64,000 bases of DNA, taken from positions 2,955 to 66,954 of the forward strand of contig JBEKUZ010000014.1 in assembly GCA_049514515.1 (NCBI GenBank), given 5' to 3'. Positions 25,613 to 58,867 of the stretch are shown here, piece after piece (position 1 is the stretch's first letter; every line of letters begins with the position of its first letter). Under the pieces are notes generated by a model. That model saw only the letters and a program-made list of their open reading frames with translations, made no database searches and was not told the origin of the DNA. This DNA comes from Thermodesulfobacteriota bacterium. Lineage in GTDB: Bacteria > Desulfobacterota > BSN033 > UBA1163. The position numbers and the translations under genes are program-made.

Positions 25613-25614
25613 AG

Positions 25615-26863: not shown

Positions 26864-26865
26864 GT

Positions 26866-26960: not shown

Positions 26961-26964
26961 AAAG

Positions 26965-27955: not shown

Positions 27956-27975
27956 AAAAAAGGAGGGGCAAAAAG

Positions 27976-28359: not shown

Positions 28360-28371
28360 AATGTCGAATGC

Positions 28372-28458: not shown

Positions 28459-28489
28459 GACAAATGTTTAAGTCTCAAGATACTTTTAA

Positions 28490-28552
28490 TTTGAACTTTG
28501 GAATTTGAACTCGGTTTGAACTTTGAGTTTTGACATTTGACATTTTGTATTG
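28490..28552. repeat. tandem TTTGAACT/TTTGACA degenerate repeats
   Basis: tttgaactttggaatttgaactcggtttgaactttgagttttgacatttgacatttt. Confidence 0.6.
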
Positions 28553-28561
28553 AGGCCGAAG

Positions 28562-32731: not shown

Positions 32732-32885
32732 TAATTTTGGTATTTTGAAAAGAGAAAGGAAGACATCATTCAGAGGTGCCATTCCTGCGGAAGCAGGAAT
32801 CCATTTCTTTAAAAACCTTTCTGGATTTCCACTGGAGTTTACCCCGTACTTGATACGGGGTGGGAAGGACACGATACAGCGACAA

Positions 32886-39505: not shown

Positions 39506-39633
39506 AGAAATCCGTCGCAGAAATCTCCCTCCTCCCTCCGGGGTTTAAGTTTCTTCTACTGGGAAACAGACCTTGGAAGCTTCGGCTTGACCATAGAAGG
39601 AGGAAAGATGCTCAACCATGTTGAGGGACTGAC

Positions 39634-41543: not shown

Positions 41544-41547
41544 ATAC

Positions 41548-42291
41548 ATGTTAGAAGTAAGGGATGTCACCAAGCATTTTGGCGGGTTATGCGCGGTCAA
41601 TGAAGTGAGCTTCTCTGTGAAAGAAGGGGCGGTCGTGGGGCTCATCGGACCAAACGGAGCGGGCAAAACGACCCTTCTGAACCTTATCTGTGGAATTTAC
41701 AAACCGGACGCAGGAACCATTCGTTTTGCGGAAAAGGATATTACTGGCATGCCTTCCAATAGGATATGTCGCTTGGGCGTATCCAGAACCTATCAAATCC
41801 CGCAGCCCTTCTATGCGATGACCACCTTAACCGGGGTTGCGGTCAGTGTCATTCATGGGAAAAAACGACCGCACATGAGTCTGTCAGATGCGATCCTCGA
41901 AGCTTCTTACTACCTCGAGTTTGTCGGGTTGTTTTCTAAACGGGATACGCTCGCCCGGGAGTTAACCATATACGAATTGAGAATGCTCGAACTGGCAAGA
42001 GCGCTCGCGACAACTCCCAAGCTGTTGTTGCTTGACGAAGTCATGGCGGGTTTGAACCCGGCCGAATCCTCGAAGGCCTTAGAAATGATCTGGAATGCCC
42101 AAGAGCAATTCGACATCACCATCCTTTGGATAGAGCACATCATGAAAATCATCATGAATGCGGCCCAGCAAATCGTCGTTCTCCATTATGGCCAGAAAAT
42201 TGCTGAAGGAACTCCGCAAGAAATTGCCAACGATGCAAAAGTTATTGAGGCTTATTTGGGAGGTCAGTATGCTCAAAGTGGGCGACCTTAA
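41548..42291 (+). CDS. livG: ABC transporter ATP-binding protein (LivG-like)
   Basis: Walker A GPNGAGKTT, plus signature and Walker B (LLLDEVMAG). Confidence 0.8.
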   Translation: MLEVRDVTKHFGGLCAVNEVSFSVKEGAVVGLIGPNGAGKTTLLNLICGIYKPDAGTIRFAEKDITGMPSNRICRLGVSRTYQIPQPFYAMTTLTGVAVSVIHGKKRPHMSLSDAILEASYYLEFVGLFSKRDTLARELTIYELRMLELARALATTPKLLLLDEVMAGLNPAESSKALEMIWNAQEQFDITILWIEHIMKIIMNAAQQIVVLHYGQKIAEGTPQEIANDAKVIEAYLGGQYAQSGRP

Positions 42292-42973
42292 CGTCGCTTA
42301 TGGGGTAGTTCCTGTCCTTCATCAAGTAAGCCTCAAGGTAGAAGAGGATGAGATTGTGGCTCTCCTCGGTTCCAATGGAGCGGGCAAGACCACCCTGCTG
42401 AACACGATCTCCGGGCTGCTCAAATGTGCCTCCGGGGAAATCTCATTCATGGGCAAGTCCATAGAAAATTTACGTCCCCACCAGATCGTCGCTTCAGGAA
42501 TTGTCCAGGTCCCGGAGGGTAGAAAAATCTTCCCCTATCTCACCGTGAGGGAAAATCTTCTTATGGGATCTTGCCTGCCTCAAACCTGGAGGAGGAGAAA
42601 CAGCTTGTTGGAGAAGGTCTGTAGCATTTTCCCCATTTTGAAAGAACGGAGCCACCAGCGAGCCAGCCTCATGAGTGGAGGAGAGCAGCAGATGCTCGTC
42701 GTCGCCAGGGGTTTAATGGCCCAGCCCAGGTTGCTCATGATCGATGAGCCATCCTTGGGGTTGAGTCCATTGATGATGTCCCAGATCTATGGAGTGATGA
42801 GAACGTTTCCTCAGGAGCGAATCACCGTTTTGCTTTCCGAACAGAATGCACAACAGGCCCTGGAGATGGCCAATAGAGGCTATGTTCTGCAGGACGGCCA
42901 TGTGGTTTTGGAAGGGCCCAGCGAAAAACTTCTCAGCAGCGAGTTTGTAAAAAAGGCTTACGTGGGGATATAG
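42269..42973 (+). CDS. livF: ABC transporter ATP-binding protein (LivF-like)
   Basis: Walker A GSNGAGKTT, LSGGEQQML and LLMIDEPS. SD ggaggt. Confidence 0.8.
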   Translation: MLKVGDLNVAYGVVPVLHQVSLKVEEDEIVALLGSNGAGKTTLLNTISGLLKCASGEISFMGKSIENLRPHQIVASGIVQVPEGRKIFPYLTVRENLLMGSCLPQTWRRRNSLLEKVCSIFPILKERSHQRASLMSGGEQQMLVVARGLMAQPRLLMIDEPSLGLSPLMMSQIYGVMRTFPQERITVLLSEQNAQQALEMANRGYVLQDGHVVLEGPSEKLLSSEFVKKAYVGI

Positions 42974-42975
42974 AA

Positions 42976-44334
42976 ATGCCCGAGGATTATTTTTCTTTCA
43001 CCCAAAGAATGTTTGACGCTCGCAAGGCGCAGGAAAAGCCAGAAGCCCTGAAGGGGATTCGAGTTCTCGATCTCTCCCATATGATTTTTGGTCCGATTGC
43101 CGCCAAATTCCTCGCCCAATTTGGAGCGGAAGTGATTAAGGTTGAGGTTCCGTATCAGGGCGATCATTGGAGAGGGGCCACCTATTGGGGGAAGTACTGG
43201 AAACATTCCAACCCATTGTGGAATTTTATCAACCACAGCAAGTATTTCGTGGCGATCGATGTGAAGAAACCCAAAGGAAAAGAGTTAATCTTAAAATTGG
43301 CTGAAAAATCGGACGTGGTGATTGAGAATTTTACTTCCGGGACCGTGGAGGCATGGGGAATCGGGTATACCCAGGTGAGGAAGAAGAACCCAGGAGTCAT
43401 CTATGCCGGCCTGAGCACTTTCGGGCAATATGGGCCGTTCCGCTTCTTCCCGGGATGGGATCTTCTGGCTCAGGGGGCGAGCGGAATGTTAAGTTTGACG
43501 GGACATCCAGAGACAGACCGATTTTTTAAAATACCTGATTTCTACGGTGATTTTTTGCCGGGGTTTTTCGCCGGCATGATGATTATGATGGCCCTGCACC
43601 ATCGCCTGAAGACAGGAGAAGGGCAATATCTCGACGCCTGCCAGGCAGAGATTTTGATGCGCGGATTATTTCATTTCACCTACCAGTCTGTGACGAAGGA
43701 TGAGCTTGGGCGAACCGGCAATATGGATCCTGCGGCAGCCCCCTCTGGAATTTTCAAGACCCGCGACCAGAAGTTTATCGCCTTGGCCATTGCTACGGAT
43801 AAGCAGTTTGAGCACCTGTGCGAAGCGATGGATCGAACCGACCTGTTGGATGACGAAAGGTTCAAGAAGGCCTTCACCCGGCTCAAGAAAGAGAATGCCA
43901 CACATTTGCAAAAGATAGTCAACGTATGGGTAAGGTCTAAGGATGAAAAGGAACTTGTGGAGACTGCCAAACAATATGGTTTCCCGCTATCACCGGTTAT
44001 GGACGACCTGCAAATCTGCCAGGATGAGTGGCGAAGGGATCGGGGAAGTGTGCTCCTTCACGATGATGAGATGTACAAGAAACTGGCTCTGGCAGGACCT
44101 TTGGCCATGTTGAGTAAAACGCCCGCCAGGATTAAATGGCTCACCCGCCCCCTCGGTTACCATAATCGCTATATTTTTAAGAAACTACTGAAATTATCAG
44201 AAAAGGAGATAAAGGCTCTGGAGAAAGAAGGCGTGGTGGGCTATTGGGATTACCGGGTTGGCCAAAGGCCTCCTGTGTATTATGACATGGGTAAAGATCG
44301 GATTTTCAATTATGAAGGGAGTGAAGAACATTAA
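42976..44334 (+). CDS. family III CoA-transferase (CaiB/BaiF/Frc-like), subunit 1
   Basis: Characteristic N-terminus GIRVLDLSHMIFGPIAAKFLAQFGAEVIKVE. Confidence 0.8.
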   Translation: MPEDYFSFTQRMFDARKAQEKPEALKGIRVLDLSHMIFGPIAAKFLAQFGAEVIKVEVPYQGDHWRGATYWGKYWKHSNPLWNFINHSKYFVAIDVKKPKGKELILKLAEKSDVVIENFTSGTVEAWGIGYTQVRKKNPGVIYAGLSTFGQYGPFRFFPGWDLLAQGASGMLSLTGHPETDRFFKIPDFYGDFLPGFFAGMMIMMALHHRLKTGEGQYLDACQAEILMRGLFHFTYQSVTKDELGRTGNMDPAAAPSGIFKTRDQKFIALAIATDKQFEHLCEAMDRTDLLDDERFKKAFTRLKKENATHLQKIVNVWVRSKDEKELVETAKQYGFPLSPVMDDLQICQDEWRRDRGSVLLHDDEMYKKLALAGPLAMLSKTPARIKWLTRPLGYHNRYIFKKLLKLSEKEIKALEKEGVVGYWDYRVGQRPPVYYDMGKDRIFNYEGSEEH

Positions 44335-44413
44335 AGAGAGGACTTATTCGCGATATCTCCAAAAGAAAGGAGCAGGGAAGAGGATTTCCGAATGGAGCCA
44401 GTTTTTGACGGAA

Positions 44414-45667
44414 ATGACCTCTGCGGAGGGGAAACCAGAAGCTCTTGAAAACGCGGTGGTCCTCGATCTCAGCTATGCGAATTTCGCGGGCATCATGGCG
44501 GCAAGTTTTCTGGCTGAAGCAGGAGCGGAGGTGATCAAGGTTGAACCCCCTGAAGGCGATCCTTCAAGAGTGATGAGCCCGTTCGGTGTCAACCTGAAAG
44601 GAGTGGGGATTCCCTATCTGACGGAGAGTCGAAATAAGCGCCACATCACCCTGCAGTTGAATGAAGAGCGGGATCGAGAAAATCTCAAGAAAATGGCTGT
44701 CAAAGCGGATGTGCTCATCGAAACTTTTGCACCGGGAGAAATGGATTCCCTCGGAATTGGGTATCGGCAATTGAGTGAGCTAAACCCAAGCTTGGTTTAC
44801 GTGGCCATAACACCTTATGGTCATTTTACCTCGAAGGCCAAGAAATTTTCAAAAATACCCTGGGCTGATCTTACCAGCCAAGCCGAGTCCGGGCTTGCTG
44901 CCCTGATCGGGGACCTTCCCGATACCCCGGAGCCGTTTAACTGGCCCACGCGGGCCGGTTTTTACGCCGCCGGATATGCGACTGCTGTAGGAGCTGCCGG
45001 CGGAGCCCTGGTCGCTCTATTTCACCAGCGAATAACGGGGGAGGGGCAGATGGTAGATATAGCCTCCGCAGATGCCTATGCGTCCTGTGTGGGGTTTCCC
45101 TCGACCATTGGCTATGTATGGAAAAAACCGCGCCCGCGATATGGTACCCTCGATTACGGGTTATGCCCGTATGGTTTTTTCAAATGCCAGGATGGTTTTA
45201 TCGCGATCGCTTGTTTTCGAGATCAAGATTTCCGGGCTGCCTTGAAAATTTTGAGGCTTTGGAAATTGGAAGAAGATTGGAGGTCGCTGCTCGACAGGAT
45301 CACGGATGATATCGACAAAGTGAAGGAGCTAAACCGCAAAATAGAAGAAGCCGTAGCCCAGTACACCTATAAGGAAATATTTGAAAAGTTTTCCGCTTAC
45401 AGTGTAAAAGCAGCGCGCTCCAAATGGAGAGGCGGGGGACTGCCTGTGACCACAAAAATGCTGACCCCGAAGGAGGTCTTAGAGTCAGAACATTGGCGGG
45501 TGCGGCATACTTTCCATACCATAAACCATCCCACCTTCGGAATATTTACCGTTCCCGTCACGGGGAAAATGTCCAAAACCCCGATGCGGATTAAATGGGT
45601 TTCAGCAAATGTGGGGGAGGACAACGAATACATCTTCAAAAAATACGGCCTGAAGACGGGAGCTTAA
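44414..45667 (+). CDS. family III CoA-transferase, subunit 2 (paralog)
   Basis: VVLDLSYANFAGIMAASFLAEAGAEVIKVE. The start is chosen downstream of the upstream gene's stop; the ORF-track start at 44258 overlaps. Confidence 0.72.
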   Translation: MTSAEGKPEALENAVVLDLSYANFAGIMAASFLAEAGAEVIKVEPPEGDPSRVMSPFGVNLKGVGIPYLTESRNKRHITLQLNEERDRENLKKMAVKADVLIETFAPGEMDSLGIGYRQLSELNPSLVYVAITPYGHFTSKAKKFSKIPWADLTSQAESGLAALIGDLPDTPEPFNWPTRAGFYAAGYATAVGAAGGALVALFHQRITGEGQMVDIASADAYASCVGFPSTIGYVWKKPRPRYGTLDYGLCPYGFFKCQDGFIAIACFRDQDFRAALKILRLWKLEEDWRSLLDRITDDIDKVKELNRKIEEAVAQYTYKEIFEKFSAYSVKAARSKWRGGGLPVTTKMLTPKEVLESEHWRVRHTFHTINHPTFGIFTVPVTGKMSKTPMRIKWVSANVGEDNEYIFKKYGLKTGA

Positions 45668-45769
45668 ACCTGGGAAACCCAAGCATGTGTGGAAGCGTTG
45701 AATTCGAAAAAAGCCAGAAATTTTCCAGTAAAAAACGAGGATTCCTTCCTGCAGAAGGAGGAGGAAATT

Positions 45770-46849
45770 ATGCTCAAAATAATATCCATAATATTTTTGT
45801 TTATCCTAACATTTTCCGGTACCGGCTTATCGTTTGACAAAATGGAAATACCGATTTCTAGTGTATTTGGCGAGAATCTATTCACTGATAACCAATCGAA
45901 AATACTATTTGTTGACGGCTTTAAGGGTTTGTATTCAATTGATCTGGCAAGTAAGAAAGTTAACCGGATTGGAAACTATAAGATGGTTACAGGAATTTAT
46001 TCAACACCTAAGGGAATATTCTTGATCTATGATAAATATAATAAATCTGAGCGTAAGGGTGTATCACGTCTATCTGTTTTGGGGGACGGATACCATGAAG
46101 TATTCCAGAGAGAATACACGAGGTGGTATGGTCATGCCTATCCGATGGCTGCGCCGGACGGGAGACATATTGCTTTAACCGAGTATATTGCCACTTCTGG
46201 TAGCCTGGATCTAATAATTATGGATACGGATGGCAAAGAGGAAAAACACGTGTCAGGTTTGGAAAGCAAACATACTTTACCAACATTTTTGTGGAGTGGT
46301 GATAGTAATTTATTATACTTGCTGAGATCGAATGGGAATAATACGGAATTCTGCATGTATGATATTCGCGATGGCACAATAAAAACCATTCATGACGAAG
46401 CGAACATGGAAGTATCTTACACTTTCCCAAAATTATTGAAAAACGGACATATATTGTTCCTGGGAAAAGATTCGAACGGGGGACTTATAATTGGCAAATA
46501 TGACCTGATGCTTTCTTTGACTACGGTAAAAAAAATTGATATGAGCGATGATTATGATGATTTCATGATGTCCATATCAGAATTGCCTGACAATTTATAT
46601 TTATGTGAAGTAGTAAGAGCTTCGAACAAACATAAATTGTCGGTAGATAAACATACGTTGATATTATTTGATGACTCATTGGAAATAAAAAAAGTTATTG
46701 AGATAACCGCGAAAAACTTAACACCAATAGCCTACAACCAAATGCTCAAGGAAATGTTATTTTTTAGAAATGAAAGGGAGCTTATCGGAATGGACTTTGG
46801 AAGGGAAGAGAACGGCCAACCCTTGATAGAGGTCATCGTAAAAAAATAG
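45770..46849 (+). CDS. secreted TolB-like beta-propeller (PD40-repeat) protein, low-GC gene
   Basis: Signal peptide MLKIISIIFLFILTFSGTGLS and SD gaaggaggagg. The gene is AT-rich compared with its neighbours. Confidence 0.6.
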   Translation: MLKIISIIFLFILTFSGTGLSFDKMEIPISSVFGENLFTDNQSKILFVDGFKGLYSIDLASKKVNRIGNYKMVTGIYSTPKGIFLIYDKYNKSERKGVSRLSVLGDGYHEVFQREYTRWYGHAYPMAAPDGRHIALTEYIATSGSLDLIIMDTDGKEEKHVSGLESKHTLPTFLWSGDSNLLYLLRSNGNNTEFCMYDIRDGTIKTIHDEANMEVSYTFPKLLKNGHILFLGKDSNGGLIIGKYDLMLSLTTVKKIDMSDDYDDFMMSISELPDNLYLCEVVRASNKHKLSVDKHTLILFDDSLEIKKVIEITAKNLTPIAYNQMLKEMLFFRNERELIGMDFGREENGQPLIEVIVKK

Positions 46850-47110: not shown

Positions 47111-49216
47111 ATGACAAAGGGGATCAGCCGTCGAGGGTTTTTGAAGGGTAGCATTGCCGGGGTCTGCCTGTCCTTTTTTAATCCCTTTCAAAGAGTAGCA
47201 AAGGGCCAAGCAACTCCGTCCAGTCCTCTCTTCTGGATTCAGGATATTCCTGTTCAATCCTTTCCTTCGGAAGACAGCAATCATCATGCCGGACTCGACG
47301 CTCTTCTTCAATTGATGGGAGGGAATGGCTTAAAATTCTACCGCTCTGCTCAAGAAACACCTCTCAGCGGCCCTTCGGGCATGATCGAGCCTGACGATGT
47401 CGTTTTAATTAAAGTGAATGCCCAATGGAAATATCGGGGCTGCACAAACAGTGATCTCATCCGGGGACTGATCCAGGCGATCCTGGACCACCCTGATGGG
47501 TTCTCGGGTGAAATTGTCATTTTCGATAACGGCCAGGGCCGGGGAAGCCTCAATTGCGATACGAGTTCGGGCTATCCGAATGGCGCTGTCCATGCCAACG
47601 CCAATAACGAGAACCAGAGTTTCCTTTACCTCGTCAATACTGTTTTCAATGATCCCCGGCTTTCCGCGTATCTGCTCGACCGCATCGGAGGCACCTTCAT
47701 TGGAGCCAACGATCACGTGAAGGATGGTTATCGGATATATGAAAAAGTCTCCTATCCCTGTTTTACCACAGACGGGGGACACCGGGTCGAATTGAGGGAA
47801 GGTCTTTGGCAGGGAAACGCGTACAGCCAAAAACTCAAATTGATTAATGTCCCGGTCCTTAAAACTCACGGCGGCTCGAACATGACTGCCTCTCTTAAAC
47901 ATTTTTACGGAGTGGTTTCAATGAATGATGGCAATAGCGACTTCCGTCATTACGATGGCCTTGGACAGACCACCGGAAAGATGATGGTCTCGGTCCGGAC
48001 GCCGGTGTTGAATATCATTGATGCGATCTGGGTCTCTTTTTCATCTCTATCGGGATATCCAGCCAATGCGACCTTTCAGGCCAGTCAAATCCTGGCAAGC
48101 CAGGACCCTGTCGCCCTCGACTACTGGGCGGCCAAATATATCCTCTATCCCATCAGCCAGAACTCCGGTCACTTCCCAGCCCCGGGAGGCATTATCGACA
48201 AATGGCTGACCGATGCCCGAGATCTCATCAATGGGCGTGGAGGCCTATCTAATCCTGATGCCGGAATCTTGATCGAGGCTGTCACAAAAGATGAGCAGCA
48301 GATGTTGACCCATGTATTCGCTTTAGCCGATTCCGTCTCAATCCCTAATACTCCGCAAGGATCTGCCAACGGACTGACAGGCACGATTTACACCTATACC
48401 ACAGGTGGATCAATATCCAGCACAGGTAACCCGGTTCAGTATCTATTTGACTGGGGGGATGGGACGAACTCGGGTTGGCTTCCGGCTGGCCAATCTATGG
48501 CGTCCAAATCCTGGGCCTCGGCTGGCATGTATCAGGTAAAGGTCCAAGCCCGATGCGCCTATCAGACAACGGGTCTGTCCCCTTGGTCCGAGACTCTTTC
48601 GGTCACAATAACTCCAATCAGCGTCTCTGTTGTCTCACCCAACGGAGCGGAGACCTGGCCAGCAGGTTCGACCCAGACGATTCGCTGGAGTTGCAACGGG
48701 AATATAGGATCTTATGTAAAAATAGAGTTGCTGAAACCGGGAACTGCAAATCACACCATCGTCTCCTCGGTCTCTGCACGAAGCGGCTCATATAAATGGA
48801 AAATTCCTTCCGACCAGGCTTTGGGAGGCGATTATAGTATTAAAGTAACCAGCAAGAGCAACAGCTCTTATACCGATACCAGCAATAACACCTTCGCCAT
48901 TATCGGGCCTCCGCCCCCAGCGATCACGGTTGTCTCTCCGAATGGAGGAGATACCTGGTCCGCAGGTACAACGCAAAAGATTCAATGGAGTTATACGGGG
49001 AATATTGGAGGTTTTGTAAAGATTGAGCTTCTCAAGCCAGGGGTAAAAAATCAAACGATCGCTTCTTTTGCTTCGATCGGAAGTGGAGGGAATGGCTCGT
49101 ATAATTGGAGGATTCCTCCAAAGCAGGCGTCGGGGTCAAACTATACGATTCGGGTGACGAGCAAAAGCAATACGGGTTGTACAGATACCAGCGGTGGCGA
49201 TTTCAGCATTAATTAA
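47111..49216 (+). CDS. Tat-exported DUF362-domain protein with a PKD domain and two Ser/Thr-rich Kre9/KNH-like surface repeats
   Basis: SRRGFLKG twin-arginine motif; PKD-like YLFDWGDGT; two repeats of about 93 aa (VVSPNG.ETW.AG.TQ.I.WS..GNIG..VKIELLKPG...). Confidence 0.7.
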   Translation: MTKGISRRGFLKGSIAGVCLSFFNPFQRVAKGQATPSSPLFWIQDIPVQSFPSEDSNHHAGLDALLQLMGGNGLKFYRSAQETPLSGPSGMIEPDDVVLIKVNAQWKYRGCTNSDLIRGLIQAILDHPDGFSGEIVIFDNGQGRGSLNCDTSSGYPNGAVHANANNENQSFLYLVNTVFNDPRLSAYLLDRIGGTFIGANDHVKDGYRIYEKVSYPCFTTDGGHRVELREGLWQGNAYSQKLKLINVPVLKTHGGSNMTASLKHFYGVVSMNDGNSDFRHYDGLGQTTGKMMVSVRTPVLNIIDAIWVSFSSLSGYPANATFQASQILASQDPVALDYWAAKYILYPISQNSGHFPAPGGIIDKWLTDARDLINGRGGLSNPDAGILIEAVTKDEQQMLTHVFALADSVSIPNTPQGSANGLTGTIYTYTTGGSISSTGNPVQYLFDWGDGTNSGWLPAGQSMASKSWASAGMYQVKVQARCAYQTTGLSPWSETLSVTITPISVSVVSPNGAETWPAGSTQTIRWSCNGNIGSYVKIELLKPGTANHTIVSSVSARSGSYKWKIPSDQALGGDYSIKVTSKSNSSYTDTSNNTFAIIGPPPPAITVVSPNGGDTWSAGTTQKIQWSYTGNIGGFVKIELLKPGVKNQTIASFASIGSGGNGSYNWRIPPKQASGSNYTIRVTSKSNTGCTDTSGGDFSIN

Positions 49217-49763: not shown

Positions 49764-50222
49764 GTGGTAGTTCCCAGTGAGCAAAACGATGTCTATTGGG
49801 TGCCGGGCACGGTAGGTCTTTATTTTTTCGGAGGCTTCTGGTATCGCTTCCACGAAGGCTACTGGTATAGGGCTGCCCATTATCGAGGACCCTGGGTAAC
49901 TATTTATGAAAACCTTGTTCCCAGACCTATCGTGGTTATACCCCCTGATTATATCCTCAGTTTGCCCCCAGGATACCACCGGATACACTATGGTGAATTC
50001 CATAGCCATTGGAGGGATTGGGGTCGTGATCACTACTGGGGCAGAAAGCCTTGGTATAGAGAACACGCCGAGCATCATTGGGGAGGCAGAGAATTCCATA
50101 GGCCGCCGGCTGGTGCAGGACCGAAAGTGGAAGGAGAGAAAGGGTCAAAAACCGCAGGCCCTGAGGCTGGGAAACCAGCTGGTGAACATCCGAAAACTGG
50201 TCATCCAGCGAAGCCCGAGTGA
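49764..50222 (+). CDS. His/Trp/Tyr/Arg-rich secreted hypothetical protein (mature part)
   Basis: GTG-initiated ORF with no signal peptide of its own. It lies immediately after the signal-peptide ORF, in another frame. Confidence 0.45.
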   Translation: MVVPSEQNDVYWVPGTVGLYFFGGFWYRFHEGYWYRAAHYRGPWVTIYENLVPRPIVVIPPDYILSLPPGYHRIHYGEFHSHWRDWGRDHYWGRKPWYREHAEHHWGGREFHRPPAGAGPKVEGEKGSKTAGPEAGKPAGEHPKTGHPAKPE

Positions 50223-50421
50223 CTTGTTTCAACATAGATGTACCCGTAGACTATTAAGTCCTTGTCCCTGTTTGGGGCAAGGACTTTTTTATTGCCAACA
50301 AACCTCGGGGCGGGCTTGCGAATCTCAAAAGATACAACCCTATGGCCTTAAGATTCAGTCTGTCTTTGACTCGTTGCTAAAATGAGGTATAATTCATACC
50401 AAAAGGAAAGGAGGAGAAAAT

Positions 50422-50844
50422 ATGAGAAAAATATGTTTTATCGTCATGTTGGTTTTAATCTCCACTTCTGTTTTTGCAGCCGAGCCCGAATCGCCGAGAT
50501 CCAAGGCGGAGAACTTCCTTGCCTTGTTGCAGCAGGGGAGCATAGGCACAGCCTACGATCAACTATTCAAGGGGTCGAGCATCGCGACGGACAGACCCCA
50601 AGTGGTGACACTGCTTATGCAGCAGACACAGTCGGGTTTGGCGTCGTACGGAAAGGTGCTTGGTTACGAAATAGTGCATGAGGAACAATTGGGCAGTTCG
50701 GTAGTACGATTGGTTTATTTCTTGAAATCCGAAAAGGCTCCGACGACCTGGGAGTTCTATTTTTATAAACCAAAATCCACCTGGTTTCTTGCGAATGTGA
50801 CGTTTAATGATCAGTTTCAGTTTTTGGACAAAAAGAGTAGATAG
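50422..50844 (+). CDS. secreted hypothetical protein (140 aa)
   Basis: Signal peptide and SD aaaggaggag. Confidence 0.6.
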   Translation: MRKICFIVMLVLISTSVFAAEPESPRSKAENFLALLQQGSIGTAYDQLFKGSSIATDRPQVVTLLMQQTQSGLASYGKVLGYEIVHEEQLGSSVVRLVYFLKSEKAPTTWEFYFYKPKSTWFLANVTFNDQFQFLDKKSR

Positions 50845-51731: not shown

Positions 51732-52322
51732 TTAATCGATCCATACCGCTGCCGGTTTCCTCGGCCTTTTGGGTCCCTCCTCGAGAACGAGCAGTCCAAA
51801 GAGAGTAATCCTAACACTGGCAAGACCGAGGGGCGCGCGCCGCGTAGGGAAATGGAGAGATTCTACCCGCCCACTCAAACCGGGGGCGGGAAAATGTACA
51901 ATGGGTTCGCGCGGAATCAAGAGAGCTGCCACTCTTATAGAGCCATAGATCATCCAGACTGAGGCAAATTCCACCAATCCCAAAAGACCTGTTTCCAACC
52001 ACCCGACATCGTAACGAAACCCAAAGCTGTACTGAACCCCATCCTTCAATATCTCGTCTTTTTTGCTAACAATCATTTTTCTCAACTGGCTTCTGATTCT
52101 TAACTGTTTGATCCGAGATAGCAGAAAGAAGGCTTCGTTCTTTGATAAAAGCCCGTCAAGACTGTCCAACTTTTCCTGGGTGGACATTCGTTTCCAGTTA
52201 TCGGGAAGAGTGACATCGACTTCGTTCTTGTCAAAAAACCACTCGTGATAGAGGATGGGAATCGCTCCGGCAAGAATAGATGATACTAATGCGAATCCAA
52301 GAACAACTTTTCGCATATTCAT
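51732..52322 (-). CDS. hypothetical exported protein
   Basis: N-terminal hydrophobic segment; no recognised motif. Confidence 0.45.
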   Translation of the reverse strand: MNMRKVVLGFALVSSILAGAIPILYHEWFFDKNEVDVTLPDNWKRMSTQEKLDSLDGLLSKNEAFFLLSRIKQLRIRSQLRKMIVSKKDEILKDGVQYSFGFRYDVGWLETGLLGLVEFASVWMIYGSIRVAALLIPREPIVHFPAPGLSGRVESLHFPTRRAPLGLASVRITLFGLLVLEEGPKRPRKPAAVWID

Positions 52323-52407: not shown

Positions 52408-53214
52408 TCAAACCTTCATCCCAGGCAGGTTCAGGGAGGCCGTGTTGCCGCCGTCAACAGGAAGAGCCTGGCCCGTAATATAACTGGCTTCATCGCTGGC
52501 CAGGAAGAGAATTGCATAAGCCACCTCCTCCGGCAAGCCATAGCGCCGCAGCTCGCAGCGGCTGCCCAATTTTTCCTCCTTCCCCGCCTTACGGGCATAG
52601 TCAAAGACGGGTTTGGTCATGCCGGTCTCGATCAGACCGGGGCAGACCGCGTTCACCCGGACATTGAACCCTCCAAGGTCGCAAGCTGCGGTCTGGGTGA
52701 AGTTGATAATGGCTGCCTTACTGGCGCTATAGGAATTGGCCCCGGCCCCTGACCGGATTCCAGCCACCGAAGCCATATTCACAATCGCCCCCGACCTGCG
52801 TTCCTGCATATGTTTGGCCACATGTTTCGTCCCATAGACGGCGCCCAAGACGTTGATCTCGTAAATTCTCTTCCACTCCTCTGGGGATTGCTCTTCCAAC
52901 GTAGAGACCTGCGCCGTTACGCCTGCGATGTTGCAAAGAATATCGATTTTGGAATACGTCTTGAGAGCTAAGTCAATCAGTTCCTTGACTTCCTCTTCAA
53001 CAGCCACACTCGTCTTTTTTATGAACGCCTCTCCCCCTTCCTGCTCGACCAGCTTCAGCGTTTCCTTTAGCCCATCGATATTCTTATCCGTCGCCAGAGC
53101 GAGTTTGGCTCCTTCTCTTGCAAAAACGACTGCCGTAGCCCGGCCAATCCCGCTGGCAGCCCCTGTGATCACAGCAACTTTTCCTTCCAAGCGACCCTTT
53201 CTATCGACCTTCAT
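52408..53214 (-). CDS. SDR-family short-chain dehydrogenase/reductase
   Basis: TGAASGIGRA (NAD(P) binding) and YSASKAA catalytic motif. Confidence 0.85.
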   Translation of the reverse strand: MKVDRKGRLEGKVAVITGAASGIGRATAVVFAREGAKLALATDKNIDGLKETLKLVEQEGGEAFIKKTSVAVEEEVKELIDLALKTYSKIDILCNIAGVTAQVSTLEEQSPEEWKRIYEINVLGAVYGTKHVAKHMQERRSGAIVNMASVAGIRSGAGANSYSASKAAIINFTQTAACDLGGFNVRVNAVCPGLIETGMTKPVFDYARKAGKEEKLGSRCELRRYGLPEEVAYAILFLASDEASYITGQALPVDGGNTASLNLPGMKV

Positions 53215-53382: not shown

Positions 53383-56241
53383 TTACTCATAGAGTTCTTG
53401 AAGAAGCTCCAGGATCTTCTGCTGGCTCGGAGTAGTGGGATCCGTGGCCATGTTCACCGCATCCCTCGAGGTATAGAAGGCAATTTTCTTCAGGTCTTCT
53501 TTTGGAACACCCAGGGCCTTTAAACTGACGGAAATATCGAGCTTCCGATAGAACTCCAGAAGGCTCGCCTCCAGATCATTGGAGCGGTTCAGCAGTTGCG
53601 CCATGTCCATAAACTGCTCTTTGCAAGTCTCTTTATTCGCCCTCACAAAACAGAGAAGTCCGTACGTGGCTGCGCGGCCGTGGGGCATATGGTAATGAGC
53701 ACCGAGAACGTGTGTAATCGCATGTCCCATGCCTAACCCTTTCAAGAAGGCGAGGCCGCCGCAGACTGCCGACATGCACATATCGGTCCGTGCGGCGATA
53801 TCATTCCCGTTCTGATATGCCCGAGGGAGACTTCGTCCAATCAACTTTATTCCGTAAACGGCGTAGGACTCAAAATAAGGATGATAGGGGGTTGCCAATG
53901 AGACGTACCCCTCAATGCAATGAGCCAGCGCGTCGATTCCCGATTCGACGGTGAGGCCGGCTGGCATCGTCTTACAGTAGACGGGATCAATCACCGCTAG
54001 TTTGGGAATCAAATAATTATTCATTAATACAATTTTTAGGTCCCTCTCCTTATCCGTTACCACGGCGCAAGGATTCACCTCGCTTCCTGTTCCCGAAGTC
54101 GTTGGGATGCAGATGATCGGCGGGAGAATTGGTTTAATCTTGCCCCCTCCGCCCACAATACCTTCAAACTCTCTCATTTCACCGGGGTGGGATACCCTAA
54201 GCCCAACTGTTTTTGCGGTATCCATCGAACTCCCGCCCCCGAGGCCCACGATTCCGTCGCAACCATTTTCCTGATAAATCTTCCCAGCCCGCTCGATGAG
54301 CTCGATGGAAGGATCAGGCTCCACCTCCGAAAAAATAACCGTGGATATGCCACTCGACTCCAAAATCTTGCGAACGTCGTCAGCCCTTCCCAATGAGAAC
54401 ATGACAGGATCGGTTGTCAGGAATACTTTTTTGACCTTCATCTGACGGATCCGCTGGCCCATATTCTCCGCAACCCCTGCGCCAAACATAATGTCAGGCA
54501 GCGGCGGGATGCGGACTTCCCAAGCTTTCTCCTTCTCCTGGTACGAATCCAGTCCCCTCCAGATGTTTTTTATCTCCGCATCATCCACATCAAAAACCTG
54601 ATCCGTCGGAGTAATGGCCTCCTCCCGGACAAAAACAACGGCTTTTGCATCCATTTTGCCGAATTCGGTCTTTTCATTGAAAGCAATCTGATCTCGCAGC
54701 GTCTGCTTGCCAATTTCCATGATATCCGCGGGGGTCAACTGGAGCCCATACCTCGCATTCATGAGATCTGCAAAAAATTGATAAACGGATGCACGGCCGC
54801 CAGGAACGGAATTCAGACAGTAGCCAAATGCGTCGCAGGTGGCAGCCTGAATCTGAGATCGAAGCGAATTTTCAGCCTGCTTGTCTTTGTTCTTGGGAAT
54901 CCGGTAAGTCAGTCCTGCCGTGTGATCCGCCCCCATGGGGCTCGTGAAATAGGTAACGCCCGTCCCCTTTACCGACCTGGGATCGTGGCCGGGTATGGCT
55001 TGCCCCCTATAAGCCGGTACACGGCTTACGTTCAAATATTTCGCAGTGGCTACCACACCGTTGGCCAAGGCCACGCCAAGCGGCGTTTCCTCTTCGATCT
55101 CACCCAAGAGTCGGGCAGCGGATTCCCAATCTCCAAACGACATTTTCCCGGCATCCGCAGCGACACCAAGGCTGCTTCCTGTTTCTATGGCATCGACGCC
55201 AAGATCGTCACACATGAACTTGAGCCGCGCAATCGCATCATTATCGATAATGCCCAGATTGGTTCCAAGCAATGCTATCGTTTCGTATTCGTAGGCAGAG
55301 CAGAGCCGTTTCCCATTCTTGTCCGGATAGATGATGGAGCACTGAACAACACAGCCGGGCATGCAGCCGTGCATCTTGCCGCCGCGTTCAAAGAGAATCT
55401 CTTGTATTCTATTGCCGCTCACGGCAATGAAGTTGTTCGGTGTGCCCGAACGGTAGTTATTCGACACCAGGGTTCCTTGGTTGGCGGAATTGTTGATAGC
55501 AAACGGGGTGCCGAAACGGGAATACAAGCTGCAGCTCACATCATGTTTCAGGGTATCGATCCACGACTTCACGACCTTTCGAAATTCCTCCGGATGGACC
55601 ATATCAACCTGCCCAGCCTGGGAAGGATCAATGATTATCGCCTTGAGTCCTTTCGAACCCATCACCGCACCGAGTCCACCTCTCGCCGCATTCCGCGATG
55701 GATCTCCAAAAATATCCGTAAAGGAGACCGACGCTCCTTTGTATCCCCGTTCTCCGGCTATTCCAGTGGAGATAACCGCTATTTTTTCACCGTATCGTCT
55801 CCGTAGCCTGTCCACCAATTCATAATTCTTCATTTGGCGGTATTCATCCGCTGGAATCAATACGGTCTTTTCCTTGGAGATCAATAGGCAGTATAAGCGA
55901 TGAGCCTGAGGCGCACCCTCAACGATAATCGCGCGGATCCCCAGCCGGTCGAGGATTTGCGCAGCCGGGCCTCCTGAGTTTGCCTCTTTGATTCCCAGTG
56001 TCAAGGGACTTTTTGCGCCAACGGAAATCCGTCCAAGTTGTGGAGCGCCAGTGCCCGCCAGAGGGCCTACAGCAATAATAAAACGATTGTCAGGGCCGAG
56101 TGGGTTCGCAGCCGGGGGAACCTCTTTGTTCACGATCTTAGCAATGAAGGCGCTGCCGCCGATGGTCTTCCACGCTTCCTCCATATTTTCGAACTTGATC
56201 TTTTCACTTTGCACGTCCACCCTTAGAATCTTCACATCCAT
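53383..56241 (-). CDS. fusion protein: tungsten-type aldehyde:ferredoxin oxidoreductase (AOR, N-terminal about 580 aa) + iron-containing (class III) alcohol dehydrogenase (C-terminal about 370 aa)
   Basis: AOR N-domain (FIIAVGPLAGTGAPQLGRISVGAKSP), AOR [4Fe-4S] motif GCMPGCVVQC, then Fe-ADH motifs GGGSSMDTAKT, TTSGTGSE, ALAHCIEGY and GMGHAITH. A continuous 952-codon frame. Confidence 0.8.
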   Translation of the reverse strand: MDVKILRVDVQSEKIKFENMEEAWKTIGGSAFIAKIVNKEVPPAANPLGPDNRFIIAVGPLAGTGAPQLGRISVGAKSPLTLGIKEANSGGPAAQILDRLGIRAIIVEGAPQAHRLYCLLISKEKTVLIPADEYRQMKNYELVDRLRRRYGEKIAVISTGIAGERGYKGASVSFTDIFGDPSRNAARGGLGAVMGSKGLKAIIIDPSQAGQVDMVHPEEFRKVVKSWIDTLKHDVSCSLYSRFGTPFAINNSANQGTLVSNNYRSGTPNNFIAVSGNRIQEILFERGGKMHGCMPGCVVQCSIIYPDKNGKRLCSAYEYETIALLGTNLGIIDNDAIARLKFMCDDLGVDAIETGSSLGVAADAGKMSFGDWESAARLLGEIEEETPLGVALANGVVATAKYLNVSRVPAYRGQAIPGHDPRSVKGTGVTYFTSPMGADHTAGLTYRIPKNKDKQAENSLRSQIQAATCDAFGYCLNSVPGGRASVYQFFADLMNARYGLQLTPADIMEIGKQTLRDQIAFNEKTEFGKMDAKAVVFVREEAITPTDQVFDVDDAEIKNIWRGLDSYQEKEKAWEVRIPPLPDIMFGAGVAENMGQRIRQMKVKKVFLTTDPVMFSLGRADDVRKILESSGISTVIFSEVEPDPSIELIERAGKIYQENGCDGIVGLGGGSSMDTAKTVGLRVSHPGEMREFEGIVGGGGKIKPILPPIICIPTTSGTGSEVNPCAVVTDKERDLKIVLMNNYLIPKLAVIDPVYCKTMPAGLTVESGIDALAHCIEGYVSLATPYHPYFESYAVYGIKLIGRSLPRAYQNGNDIAARTDMCMSAVCGGLAFLKGLGMGHAITHVLGAHYHMPHGRAATYGLLCFVRANKETCKEQFMDMAQLLNRSNDLEASLLEFYRKLDISVSLKALGVPKEDLKKIAFYTSRDAVNMATDPTTPSQQKILELLQELYE

Positions 56242-56334
56242 CTCTCCTCTTTGCCCGGCTCAAAACGATATCTTTATTGGCTTAAGTGTAACATAGAAGA
56301 AGGTGTGCATCTACCCTTATGAAAAGGCTCCAAA

Positions 56335-57147
56335 TTAACGGCTGGGGCATACGAACCATGGATAGCGGGTAAATTCCTTGTATCCCATTCTCTTATAGAC
56401 GGGCTCACCATATAGGCTCGCTTGCAAAATAACACAGCGAGCACCGAGCTTGAAGGCAGCATTTCCAACCGTTCGTGTGCAGTGTTCCGCTAAGCCCATT
56501 CCACGTGCCGCCTCAACCGTTCCTACATAATAAATGCCCGCGATGCCGTGACTCATCAGGGCCAAAGCGCAGGAAGCGGGCTTGTTATCTCGATATGCCA
56601 CAACAGCATAAAGATGGGGCACGAGAAAAGCATTCGGGGCGCTGAAGACGCTTCTACCCACAGTCTCAGGCAACCCAAGCGCGGTGTAGCTAAGCGCTAC
56701 CACCTCAGCAAAGTCATTGACCATCGCCTCATCCGTAACATGCCGTAATGTGGCGCCGTCAGGCAACGGCCTGTCTTCAAGCATCCCTTCGATGAACATA
56801 CCGGGCAAGTTTGATATCTGATAGAGTTTAAGCTCTTCGCATTGATCGAGCAGATCCTTGTCAATATGGGTTCGAACAATGATGGTGAAAGATCGCTTCC
56901 GTTTTCCAAAAAACTCCTTCGCCTGAGCAATAAGCTTGTCAGGGGATGATTTCAATTGCCTGCCAACCCTGATGACGAAGTTAACTGCTGGAAAGGTGTT
57001 CGCCCCGCAAACAAAAAGAATATCCCCTTGTTCAGCCATATCCGTATTTGGATTCCACCTGGAAATCTCACGGTGGGATTCCGCCAGGTTTAGATCAGCT
57101 AATTGAAGTAATTCATCTTGGTTCATCTCGTTTTTCCTCGATAACAA
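56335..57147 (-). CDS. GNAT-family acetyltransferase-like protein
   Basis: Weak acyl-CoA N-acyltransferase-like pattern. Same strand, 93 nt upstream of the AOR-ADH gene. Confidence 0.45.
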   Translation of the reverse strand: MLSRKNEMNQDELLQLADLNLAESHREISRWNPNTDMAEQGDILFVCGANTFPAVNFVIRVGRQLKSSPDKLIAQAKEFFGKRKRSFTIIVRTHIDKDLLDQCEELKLYQISNLPGMFIEGMLEDRPLPDGATLRHVTDEAMVNDFAEVVALSYTALGLPETVGRSVFSAPNAFLVPHLYAVVAYRDNKPASCALALMSHGIAGIYYVGTVEAARGMGLAEHCTRTVGNAAFKLGARCVILQASLYGEPVYKRMGYKEFTRYPWFVCPSR

Positions 57148-57335
57148 TGAACACCATCATACTTTAATAACAGAAGAAAGCCGGTAACTTTCTCCAAAAT
57201 TAAACAACTTATTGCACGCACAGAGCGTTCTGTCAAGAAGGCTTTAGGCGGCAGAAATTGACACTAACTGGTATGGATGTGAACCCCGTCAGAAAGCGAG
57301 CAGGGGGTAAAATCCTGTCGGAATTATTCTGAAGA

Positions 57336-57788
57336 CTACTCCTCTTTCGCAGAGCAGGAGGCATCCTTTCTAACGGGGCGAAGAGGGAACCTCTTGCCAT
57401 CAATTTCAACGGTTGTTTTTGAATAGGTCAGTTTTCTGACGATCTTTCCGTCTTGAAAGTGAAGGATATCGACGCCCCTTCGTTTTTCACGCTTTCCTTC
57501 ACAGCCTTTTTCGGACGACGGCCATTCAAGTCGCCACCGGTAAAGGACTTTTTGCTCCTTATCGTCAATAAAAGTCTCTTCCTCGGTGAAATGAAACCCT
57601 CCGTGGTTCGTAAACCACGGTGCCCATGCTTTCCTCAGAGCTTCCTTACCCTCGGCTTTTCCACCTGTCCAGTTGTCAAATACGATTTCGTCGTGAAAGA
57701 GTTTCATGACCCCTTCCAGATCATGGTTCTCCCACGCAAGGTGCCATTGCTTCAGAGCATCCTTCATCTGTTCTCTTGAAAGTGACAT
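57336..57788 (-). CDS. SnoaL/NTF2-like (ketosteroid isomerase-fold) protein
   Basis: About 150 aa with a DUF4440/NTF2-like pattern (WHLAWENHDLEGVMKLFHDEIVF). Confidence 0.55.
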   Translation of the reverse strand: MSLSREQMKDALKQWHLAWENHDLEGVMKLFHDEIVFDNWTGGKAEGKEALRKAWAPWFTNHGGFHFTEEETFIDDKEQKVLYRWRLEWPSSEKGCEGKREKRRGVDILHFQDGKIVRKLTYSKTTVEIDGKRFPLRPVRKDASCSAKEE

Positions 57789-58060
57789 AAGTTACTCCTC
57801 GTCTGGATCTAGACCGCGAATCATGACCGATTTTTTTTGGGCTCCCGTCCTCCGACCATTTCATTCTCCGGGACAGGAAGTTTTCTGTTTTAGAACGGAA
57901 TTTACATCTTTTGTGAAAGCCTGTCAAGACAGATAGACAGATAGGAAATCCGCAGTCAAAATTGCACATTTTAGGCTCCGGGTACTCACAGCCTAAAAGC
58001 TGCGCCCACCCTCCCTGGACCCACGACCCTCAAATTTGCTGAGATTCGATTTCTCGTCTC

Positions 58061-58867
58061 TTATTTGCTAAAAATGTTCTTCAAAAACTCTTTCAGCTCA
58101 CCCCAGGACTTTCTGTCGGCCTCAGCATTGTAAGCGATTGGCATATTAAACTTCTTTCCCAATTCAGTGGCTTCTGGGTTGGTGAAGCTGTGCGTAGCAT
58201 CAGGATAGGAGACAAATTTAAAATCGGCGCCTGCGGATTTCATTTCTTGCTTGAACGCCTCGATCTGCTCCGGAGTGATAAACTTATCGGCCCCGCCGTG
58301 GAGCACAAGGATTTTTGCTTTGACGCTGCCGGGCTGGGCTGGTTTAACCGCAGTCAAGCTTCCATGAAAGCTTGCAACCCCTCTGAGATCCACACCCTGC
58401 CTCGCCATATTTAAAACCACGCCACCCCCGAAACAATAGCCGATGGCCGCAATACGATTCGGGTCGACACTGGGCTGTTCTTTCAAAAAGTCCGTCGCTG
58501 CCATAAAACGCGCCTTGGCAACTTCAGAATTCTTCATCACTTCTGACGAGAGCTTCCCTGCATCATCAGGAGTCGTTACCGCCTTGCCGTCGCCATACAT
58601 GTCCACGGCGAGAGCAGTGTATCCCAACTCCGCCAGCATCCGCGCCCTCTTGCGCGCGTAATCATTCAGCCCCCACCATTCAGGAACCACCAACACACCT
58701 GGCCGCTTCCCGGCGATGTTCTCGTCGTACGTTAGGTAACCCTTCATTACTACTCCCTGCGCACTGTAGTCTACCGTCTTCCCCACGATTCTCGGTTCTG
58801 CTGTTGCAACGCTTACTATCCCTAGCACCAACGTAAATACAGCAAGTTTTATTAATAAGTTTCTCAT
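58061..58867 (-). CDS. secreted dienelactone hydrolase-family protein
   Basis: Signal peptide MRNLLIKLAVFTLVLGIVSVATA and GYCFGG nucleophile elbow. SD aaggaggg precedes the ATG (MRN...). Confidence 0.75.
   Translation of the reverse strand: MRNLLIKLAVFTLVLGIVSVATAEPRIVGKTVDYSAQGVVMKGYLTYDENIAGKRPGVLVVPEWWGLNDYARKRARMLAELGYTALAVDMYGDGKAVTTPDDAGKLSSEVMKNSEVAKARFMAATDFLKEQPSVDPNRIAAIGYCFGGGVVLNMARQGVDLRGVASFHGSLTAVKPAQPGSVKAKILVLHGGADKFITPEQIEAFKQEMKSAGADFKFVSYPDATHSFTNPEATELGKKFNMPIAYNAEADRKSWGELKEFLKNIFSK

Follow-up and report, generated by a model that had tools for sequence, protein, structure and literature searches.

Can the two enzymes through which anaerobes interconvert carboxylic acids and alcohols be carried on a single polypeptide? 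The pairing of aldehyde:ferredoxin oxidoreductase (AOR) with alcohol dehydrogenase (ADH) is, to our knowledge, the only known biological route by which carboxylic acids that are not activated can be reduced to alcohols with neither ATP nor coenzyme A (CoA). Run in reverse, the same pair allows anaerobes to recover low-potential electrons from alcohols. The question is raised by an open-reading frame (ORF) in a 64,000-nt stretch of DNA from a Thermodesulfobacteriota bacterium (contig JBEKUZ010000014.1 of assembly GCA_049514515.1, positions 2,955-66,954), referred to here as the window. On its minus strand, the ORF listing of the window contains one frame of 952 codons with no internal stop that reads through an AOR and then an iron-type ADH (Fe-ADH), and we show here that this fusion gene is intact, conserved and one of several AOR/Fe-ADH fusions in nature.

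To define the domain layout of the product, the translated frame was searched against Pfam. Four domains were found, each scoring well over its gathering threshold: AFOR_N at aa 4-205 (1.4e-55, 188.6 bits, cut-off 29.8), AFOR_C at aa 224-531 (1.5e-43, 149.8 bits, cut-off 27), Fe-ADH at aa 583-753 (1.4e-48, 165.2 bits, cut-off 31.3) and ADH_Fe_C at aa 764-950 (1.7e-38, 132.7 bits, cut-off 27). The original prediction for this DNA, made from the letters alone, of one continuous 952-codon AOR/Fe-ADH frame is upheld by these results, which confirm a predicted product with a complete AOR (aa 1-568) and a complete group III Fe-ADH (aa ~572-952) in one polypeptide. The cysteine, GGGSSMD, TTSGTGSE and metal-ligand motifs lie where they had been placed, and the junction, estimated at about 54500-54600, was located within the interval given in Table 1. 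The claimed length needs a small adjustment: the frame is right, but translation likely begins two codons later, at a GTG at codon 3 (position 56235), which is the start position used by relatives. Since a Shine-Dalgarno-like GAGGAG lies 8 nt before this GTG and nearly all relatives are 950 aa long, the product is probably 950 aa. A protein identical to the fusion is deposited at NCBI as MGA2516137.1 and is present on 18 contigs.

A mis-assembly or an indel could in principle have fused two neighboring genes, and the frame is indeed broken in two relatives. This was addressed with a search of 5.8 billion proteins (NCBI, ENA, JGI and Logan) clustered at 90% identity, in which more than 120 clusters had at least 82% identity to the fusion, a length of ~950 aa and the same five Pfam matches, so that AOR homologs of 900-1000 aa, which the original prediction had proposed looking for, do exist in number. 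The gene is also carried by 11 GTDB species representatives at 74-96% identity, all of them uncultured Thermodesulfobacteriota, 'delta proteobacterium' or Desulfomonilaceae metagenome-assembled genomes (MAGs), and the frame is intact in nine. A 96% identical orthologue lies on a 2.97-Mb contig (CAVXWK01). The two broken orthologues, each in two ORFs, come from long-read MAGs and are interrupted at ~aa 300 (L010, 8007-10855) and ~aa 640 (L011, 8007-10857); these breaks are probably long-read indel errors, with pseudogenisation as the alternative. The possibility that they are natural split forms was rejected, as the breaks lie away from the domain boundary. Thus, no stop codon or frameshift separates the two genes at the junction, where the frame is continuous in all of these clusters and in the nine intact genomes. 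The ratio of nonsynonymous to synonymous substitution (dN/dS, Nei-Gojobori method, against seven orthologues with dS up to 1.9) was 0.07-0.13 in the AOR part, 0.09-0.135 over aa 532-582, which cover the AOR tail and the junction, and lowest in the ADH part, at 0.04-0.095. The AOR, the junction and the ADH are all under purifying selection, and conserved frames together with low dN/dS in all three regions exclude a decaying domain. With selection acting on the junction itself, an identical protein on 18 contigs and related proteins from four separate collections, we regard the chance that the fusion is an artefact as negligible.

The AOR half was compared with the solved structure of Pyrococcus furiosus AOR (1aor) by HMMER, which aligned aa 5-525 with E = 4e-50 and ~30% identity. 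The residues of the P. furiosus enzyme that contact the pterin or Mg, R76, N93 and R182, have R71, N88 and R187 as their counterparts in the fusion, and its two pterin motifs, D338xxGxD343 and D489xxGxC494, correspond to D345DLGVD350 and D470AFGYC475. In family alignments of 10 and 55 sequences, C293, C297, C301 and C475 are invariant, and E320 and H440 are invariant residues as well. The cysteine motif of the original prediction is therefore present, but its spacing must be corrected from the canonical C-x2-C-x3-C to C-x3-C-x3-C. This spacing typifies a large clade of short AORs (557-594 aa), in which an insertion of one residue brings it into register with the canonical motif; the three positions are occupied by Cys in 87, 90 and 87 of 91 AOR domains. 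The Fe-bridging Glu332, a site described as unique to the P. furiosus enzyme (PMC13328260), is replaced by Arg (R339). The Pfam AFOR_C match ends at profile position 332 of 385; since the nearest unfused relatives are themselves 557-594 aa long and end opposite fusion residue ~568, the AOR half is full-length for its clade. Its AFOR_N and AFOR_C domains (IPR013983 and IPR001203), four Cys ligands, both pterin motifs, pterin-contacting Arg and Asn, and equivalents of the active-site Glu313 and His448 place it in the AOR/WOR family. This half is predicted to bind a tungsto- or molybdo-bis-pyranopterin together with a single [4Fe-4S] cluster, and the metal may be tungsten rather than Mo.

The ADH half (aa 585-948) can be aligned over its full length with 8zrl, an NAD-dependent methanol dehydrogenase (1.6e-62). 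D611, the GGGSxxD motif, TTSGTGSE and the four residues D770, H774, H840 and H854 are invariant in the same two family alignments. D611 occupies what we take to be the position of the NAD-specifying Asp, which we equate with Asp39 of FucO. The presence of both domains, the GGGSxxD motif and an Asp-His-His-His metal site assigns this half to the group III Fe-ADHs. An inactive ADH-like fold lacking metal ligands had been raised as an alternative from the outset; with the metal ligands and the NAD-type Asp all present and invariant, the half is instead a ligand-bearing one.

The two halves are joined almost without a seam. The unfused sister AOR (P0124) also ends opposite residue ~568, and free Fe-ADHs start opposite residues ~572-575, indicating that the halves are joined head to tail and are practically linker-free. 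Given the near absence of a linker and the invariance of W574, E575, R577 and P579-P582, the two halves are probably held in a fixed rather than a floppy arrangement.

To find other fusions of these two enzyme families, an exhaustive HMMER search over 1.84 billion 50%-identity representatives was followed by Pfam scans. Three groups have the AOR-ADH order of the window: the group of the window itself (G1; P0018 and P0121-P0123), a second (G2) represented by P0125, of 977 aa and 38% identity, from Ca. Tharpellaceae (MCD6150588.1), Pseudomonadota and Deltaproteobacteria MAGs, and a third (G3; P0127 and P0330) of 949-961 aa and ~35% identity. Two further groups have the reverse order, ADH-AOR, and carry canonical C-x2-C-x3-C AORs: G4 (P0204 and P0230, ~1026 aa) and G5, the 1004-aa P0231 from a Heimdallarchaeota (MCG3216033.1). 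In a neighbor-joining tree of the AOR domains, a modest method run with a simple distance correction and 100 bootstrap replicates, G1 grouped with the unfused P0124 in 100 of 100 replicates, G2 was nested with three unfused AORs in 95, G3 grouped with the unfused P0205 in 51, and a single clade of all same-order fusions was recovered in none. The ADH halves of the other groups scored 139-205 bits against the ADH of the window, compared to 212-227 bits for free-standing ADHs, and the junction sequences of G1, G2 and G3 are mutually unrelated. The most parsimonious reading is that at least four or five independent fusions have occurred, in both domain orders and in both Bacteria and Heimdallarchaeota. 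No other available evidence speaks more strongly for a joint role of the two activities than their repeated independent fusion.

A distant candidate from Lachnospiraceae (L013), suggested by tblastn, was rejected as a fusion, as its AOR is a stand-alone protein of 645 aa with other genes behind it. The closest unfused AORs (L018-L023, the P0124 cluster) are 568-579 aa long at 52% identity and are flanked by an amidohydrolase, an M20 peptidase and an AAA_5/GXGXG pair. No adjacent ADH that would represent a pre-fusion aor-adh pair was found beside the unfused sister AORs of this cluster. This setting suggests that these unfused enzymes have a role in the metabolism of amino-acid-derived aldehydes rather than of alcohols.

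Table 1 Features of the fusion gene and its surroundings, in coordinates of the window
Feature	Position	Strand	Basis or remark
AOR-Fe-ADH fusion, whole coding sequence	53383..56241	-	952 codons from ATG; TAA stop 53383-53385
Shine-Dalgarno-like GAGGAG	56244..56249	-	2 nt before ATG (56241), 8 nt before GTG (56235)
AOR N-terminal domain (AFOR_N, aa 4-205)	55627..56232	-	Pfam; holds R71, N88, R187
AOR domains 2 and 3 (AFOR_C, aa 224-568)	54538..55572	-	Pfam; extends to end point of unfused sister AORs
CMPGCVVQC, three [4Fe-4S] Cys ligands C293, C297, C301	55339..55365	-	Invariant in family
EYE, Y319/E320 = catalytic Tyr312/Glu313 of P. furiosus AOR	55282..55290	-	HMMER alignment
DDLGVD (D345-D350), first pterin-phosphate-binding DxxGxD motif	55192..55209	-	HMMER alignment
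GADH, H440 = catalytic His448 of P. furiosus AOR	54922..54933	-	Clade motif GADHTAG
DAFGYC (D470-C475), second pterin motif and fourth cluster ligand C475 (= Cys494)	54817..54834	-	HMMER alignment
Junction, aa 569-582 (EKEKAWEVRIPPLP)	54496..54537	-	W574, E575, R577, P579-P582 invariant
Fe-ADH nucleotide-binding domain (aa 583-753)	53983..54495	-	Pfam
FLTTD, D611 at end of beta-2	54409..54423	-	Alignment to 8zrl; invariant
GGGSSMD dinucleotide-binding motif (aa 668-674)	54220..54240	-	Alignment to 8zrl; invariant
TTSGTGSE (aa 714-721)	54079..54102	-	Alignment to 8zrl
ADH_Fe_C helical domain (aa 764-950)	53392..53952	-	Pfam; carries D770, H774, H840, H854
Metal ligands D770, H774 in DALAH	53920..53934	-	Invariant
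Metal ligands H840, H854 in HAITHVLGAHYHMPH	53680..53724	-	Invariant
SDR-family oxidoreductase	52408..53214	-	168 bp downstream; lineage-specific, possibly co-transcribed
GNAT-like protein (weak Pfam match)	56335..57147	-	93 bp upstream; lineage-specific
Wood-Ljungdahl cluster	353-13175	+	Complete carbonyl/methyl set

We consider it likely that the fusion protein is a CoA- and ATP-independent bifunctional alcohol/acid oxidoreductase that would use NAD(H) at the ADH site and ferredoxin at the AOR site and hand the aldehyde over locally. The C-terminal Fe-ADH half would interconvert a primary alcohol and its aldehyde with NAD(H), and the N-terminal AOR half would interconvert the aldehyde and the acid in one-electron exchanges with ferredoxin. 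Redox centers in the AOR are limited to the pterin metal and a single [4Fe-4S] cluster, and the Fe-ADH fold contains no cofactor for electron transfer, so that the halves would be coupled via the aldehyde and not electronically; since the two sites are tethered without a flexible linker, the aldehyde would be made beside the site that consumes it. Tethering would keep free aldehyde very low, by proximity or by channelling, and so limit its toxicity. The redox potentials are about -190 to -200 mV for acetaldehyde/ethanol and about -520 to -580 mV for acid/aldehyde (PMC6436200, PMC10816221), values that leave one uphill step in each direction, which runs only at very low aldehyde. Low aldehyde would pull this step, alcohol with NAD+ in the oxidative direction or acid with reduced ferredoxin in the reductive one, and each alcohol oxidized would yield one NADH plus two equivalents of reduced ferredoxin. 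A precedent exists in Thermacetogenium phaeum, where ADH and AOR are separate enzymes and the AOR is argued to pull the ADH step by holding acetaldehyde low (PMC6436200).

The genes around the fusion were then compared among relatives. On the minus strand of the window, it is co-oriented with genes for an SDR, a GNAT-like protein, a SnoaL-like protein and an exported dienelactone hydrolase, with gaps of 93-188 bp. The operon of NTF2-like, GNAT and SDR genes put forward originally is supported by this shared orientation and these short gaps, but it is not conserved beyond close relatives, as these neighbors are kept only at 90% identity or above and are replaced by unrelated genes at 74-85% identity. 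In two relatives at 83-84% identity, the gene directly upstream encodes a Cys/His-rich 143-aa protein (L016, 3832-4263; L017, 7515-7946; 81% identical, with no Pfam or NCBIfam match) and the gene directly downstream an EamA-family transporter; a DJ-1/PfpI gene is also near the fusion in L016, and toxin-antitoxin genes and a reverse transcriptase lie downstream in L017. A MaoC-like gene flanks the fusion in L008 and unrelated genes do so in L007. No operon partner was conserved across the relatives, and the upstream 143-aa genes of L008 and of L016/L017 are unrelated. With flanking genes that differ among relatives at 83-85% identity, the fusion gene acts as a unit of its own. Scans of the fusion locus for promoters and terminators gave no excess over shuffled expectation. 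Between the SDR and a Ysc84-like gene of the window is a 196-aa ORF (51732-52322, minus strand) without a family match that is kept at 69-93% identity in L001, L005 and L009 and is probably a real gene.

One locus, L006, has a more telling context. There the fusion is co-oriented, in a beta-oxidation-type region (4388-18570), with a FadD-like acyl-CoA ligase, two thiolases, several acyl-CoA dehydrogenases and a 3-hydroxyacyl-CoA dehydrogenase, and the cluster also holds a TetR regulator and an HpaB-family protein. This context fits a path from alcohol to acid, then to acyl-CoA and on into beta-oxidation. Several acyl-CoA dehydrogenase genes of L006 appear to be broken up into two or three ORFs each (6037-6807; 14629-16415), for which frameshifts from sequencing are the probable cause. 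The HpaB-family protein (11923-13401) falls far short of the cut-off for the HpaB equivalog and might be of the 4-hydroxybutyryl-CoA dehydratase type. A C4 hydroxy-acid or diol as substrate of the fusion was considered from this neighbor and from the match of the ADH half to 4-hydroxybutyrate dehydrogenase (DH), and was kept only as a lead, as both matches are far below equivalog cut-offs.

The remainder of the window describes the metabolism in which the fusion would operate. The Wood-Ljungdahl cluster on the plus strand comprises the corrinoid activase RACo (353-2401), CooC-like (2398-3144), FolD (3220-4110), AcsD-like (4405-5361), CO dehydrogenase (CODH, 5401-7368), acetyl-CoA synthase (ACS, 7472-9679), AcsC-like (9741-11132), an AcsE-like pterin-binding methyltransferase (11229-12131) and MetF (12252-13175). 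Methylenetetrahydrofolate reductase (MTHFR)-type ORFs are found at 12252-13175, 15836-16798 and 26965-27888 and MetV-like ORFs at 14655-15479 and 26183-26863, together with HdrC/B-like Fe-S and CCG proteins (13933-14346, 19171-19830 and 19891-20832) and an unusually large, 1530-aa HdrA-like flavoprotein (20939-25531) with three Pyr_redox_2 stretches and several Fer4 domains, all on the plus strand. The region 13933-27888 looks like an Hdr-MetFV-type methylene-tetrahydrofolate (methylene-THF) reductase system with parts duplicated. It is followed on the same strand by a response-regulator/histidine-kinase pair (27895-30064) and a trio resembling NuoE, NuoF and the N-terminal part of NuoG (30339-33557). 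Such NuoE/F/G-like modules are linked to both NADH and ferredoxin and are characteristic of hydrogenases and formate dehydrogenases that bifurcate or confurcate electrons; no catalytic hydrogenase or formate dehydrogenase subunit was identified beside the trio. Judged from its Wood-Ljungdahl, Hdr-MetFV and NuoE/F/G-like genes, the host is a strict anaerobe in which NADH and low-potential ferredoxin would both be central. It is an uncultured soil member of the Thermodesulfobacteriota, and the fusion gene is carried in Danish and other soil samples.

Several other features of the window were recorded. A PAS histidine kinase (16848-19313) lies inside the MetFV/Hdr region, as does an ORF (14267-14785, plus strand) that matches class III (c3/c7-type) multihaem cytochromes and overlaps neighboring ORFs. 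The plus-strand region 38246-45667 encodes a Liv-type ABC transporter (a binding protein, two permeases and two ATPases) and then family III CoA-transferases (42976-44334 and 44258-45667); two ORF pairs in it overlap substantially, and their start codons need revision. A 701-aa protein (47111-49216, plus strand) combines DUF362 with PKD, Kre9/KNH-like and bacterial Ig domains, and is flanked by ORFs without a Pfam match (45689-46849 and 49764-50844).

Several observations weigh against the proposed alcohol/acid oxidoreductase. The ADH half falls below the cut-off of every NCBIfam equivalog, including ErcA, 4-hydroxybutyrate DH, choline DH, FucO, EutG, PsrA and Mdh, with ErcA the best at 273.5 bits against 550. 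Gene context is variable and mostly uninformative, L006 being the single locus that supports the oxidative direction. Genes for tungstate transport (tup, wtp), molybdenum cofactor (Moco) synthesis or a dedicated ferredoxin were absent among essentially all ORFs of at least 130 aa in the window, so that the tungstate-transport and Moe/Mog genes suggested as a check on the original prediction were not found nearby, and Rfam detected no Moco or tungsten cofactor (Wco) riboswitch in the whole window at gathering thresholds or in 56100-58200 at E <= 1. A full-length AlphaFold2 model built on the 55-sequence alignment reached a mean pLDDT of 43.8 and a pTM of 0.32 and lends no support to any active-site geometry or tunnel; the usable sequences are all at least 82% identical, which makes the alignment too shallow and the model unusable. 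Proximity of two active sites alone is also no proof of channelling.

The direction in which the enzyme would mainly run in vivo is a separate matter. Both the beta-oxidation context of L006 and the NAD-type Asp of the ADH half favor oxidation of alcohol to acid, and we place the chance that this direction predominates at about even. Predominantly reductive, acetogen-style operation, the emphasis of the original prediction, in which acid and reduced ferredoxin would give the aldehyde and NAD(P)H would then reduce it to an alcohol serving as electron sink, seems to us possible but unlikely. The chemistry is reversible and this pathway is established with separate enzymes (PMC10816221, PMC12096430), the Wood-Ljungdahl cluster, Hdr-MetFV and NuoEFG-like module of the host should make low-potential ferredoxin plentiful, and a fusion would be just as well explained if immediate removal of the aldehyde served to pull the very unfavorable acid reduction. 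The NAD-type Asp argues in the other direction, however, as does L006, the sole informative context, which ties the fusion to an acyl-CoA ligase and beta-oxidation and thus to acid consumption. Thermodesulfobacteriota, moreover, usually rely on external electron acceptors or syntrophic partners and would seldom need an alcohol sink.

The fusion could also serve to scavenge or detoxify aldehydes, with both halves acting on the same free aldehyde and disposing of it oxidatively or reductively according to the redox state. Such a role has been proposed for most simple Class I WORs (PMC13328260), and it would agree with the lack of conserved pathway partners and with variable neighbors of a detoxifying or miscellaneous kind (GNAT, SnoaL and dienelactone hydrolase in the window, the EamA exporter and DJ-1/PfpI in L016/L017). 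Two alternative sinks, however, do not obviously call for a covalent, linker-less and repeatedly evolved fusion, recurrence in both domain orders is a better match to consecutive reactions, and L006 puts the gene in a catabolic operon, all of which make this explanation improbable. Least plausible among the functional alternatives, and in our view very improbable, is a non-catalytic ADH half with a structural, oligomerisation or regulatory role, as in the ErcA-like 'alcohol dehydrogenase-like regulatory protein'. ErcA is the top NCBIfam match, but its score is far under the cut-off and many catalytic equivalogs score alike, while the four metal ligands, GGGSxxD and the NAD-type Asp are invariant and the ADH half has the lowest dN/dS.

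A natural AOR-ADH fusion is not described in the literature found by full-text search, in which 'AOR-ADH' denotes the two-enzyme pathway, in agreement with the original statement that no characterized example was known. A review of tungsten enzymes from 2025 discusses AOR and ADH as distinct components (PMC12096430), and the June 2026 five-class WOR scheme, built on 4,064 WorL sequences in 92 clades, of which only 5 have a member of defined physiological role, does not mention an ADH-fused WorL in its text (PMC13328260). The fusion thus adds an architecture outside the current scheme. Databases name the fusion proteins by one half, 'iron-containing alcohol dehydrogenase' at NCBI and 'aldehyde:ferredoxin oxidoreductase' at JGI, which constitutes a systematic annotation problem. 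From two well-known enzymes, nature has made a widespread, recurrent and unstudied architecture whose function is largely predictable.

Read as an alcohol/acid oxidoreductase, this architecture bears on a known weak point of the AOR and ADH route, its toxic aldehyde, of which only traces may be present if the strongly uphill step in either direction is to run (PMC6436200). The repeatedly evolved fusion suggests that tethering is an evolutionary answer to this problem. This route has a central place in the engineering of syngas and electro-fermentation, always with the two enzymes supplied as separate proteins (PMC12096430); a fusion would offer a one-gene part for metabolic engineering and make the question of channelling testable with a single protein. 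More tentatively, and with a little less than even confidence, AOR/Fe-ADH fusions may form a convergent class of aldehyde-channelling alcohol-acid oxidoreductases with at least four to five origins, in both orders, in Bacteria and Asgard archaea. Such a class would be a ferredoxin-linked, CoA- and ATP-independent counterpart of AdhE and a single-gene acid-to-alcohol catalyst, and its two-electron stoichiometry of NADH to reduced ferredoxin, 1:1, would be the ratio used by electron-confurcating and -bifurcating enzymes.

Among the closest known systems is the two-enzyme AOR-ADH pathway, which reduces acids in P. furiosus, Clostridium autoethanogenum and Thermoanaerobacter X514 and oxidizes ethanol in T. 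phaeum (PMC10816221, PMC6436200, PMC12096430). The fusion would share its reactions, its ferredoxin and NAD(P)H logic, its aldehyde intermediate and its independence of CoA and ATP, and differs from it in being one linker-free polypeptide whose AOR belongs to the short, ~570-aa C-x3-C-x3-C clade. Another is AdhE, which also joins an aldehyde-handling domain to an Fe-ADH and so deals with the aldehyde inside a single protein, and the ADH half matches AdhE ADH domains at 1e-40 to 1e-51. The fusion would work much as AdhE does but does not belong to its family, scoring 216.7 bits against the cut-off of 951 for NF010378 and covering only the ADH part of that profile (positions 459-785). Where AdhE has a CoA-acylating, NAD-dependent aldehyde dehydrogenase (ALDH) as partner domain, the fusion has a pterin/[4Fe-4S] AOR, and its product is predicted to be a free acid rather than an acyl-CoA, with one step linked to ferredoxin and no involvement of CoA.

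Each half also has its own counterpart. The AOR half has the domain organization of the P. furiosus AOR (1AOR), a Class I WOR, and keeps all cofactor and catalytic residues tested; it differs in being shorter, in the extra residue of its Cys motif, in R339 for Glu332 and in the additional C-terminal catalytic domain of 380 aa. No WorS (with its four [4Fe-4S] clusters), WorN or WorABC neighbor was found in the window or in L001-L011, L016 and L017, and as a lone WorL without these adjacent partners, the fusion falls within the definition of Class I (PMC13328260). The ADH half resembles group III Fe-ADHs such as the Bacillus-type NAD-dependent methanol dehydrogenase, DhaT and FucO in its full-length alignment, metal ligands, GGGSxxD motif and NAD-type Asp; unlike them, it reaches no equivalog cut-off and its N-terminus is not free but continues from the AOR. 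The AorABC complex of Aromatoleum aromaticum, a Class III WOR, similarly links an AOR to the pyridine-nucleotide pool (PMC13328260); in AorABC, however, electrons pass via WorS and an FAD subunit to NAD+, whereas the fusion would engage NAD(H) at the separate ADH site with no electron wire between them. The other AOR/Fe-ADH fusions (MCD6150588.1; P0127/P0330; P0204/P0230; MCG3216033.1) unite the same two enzyme families in one polypeptide, yet they are of apparently independent origin, with 26-39% identity, different junctions and, in some, the opposite order and the canonical Cys motif.

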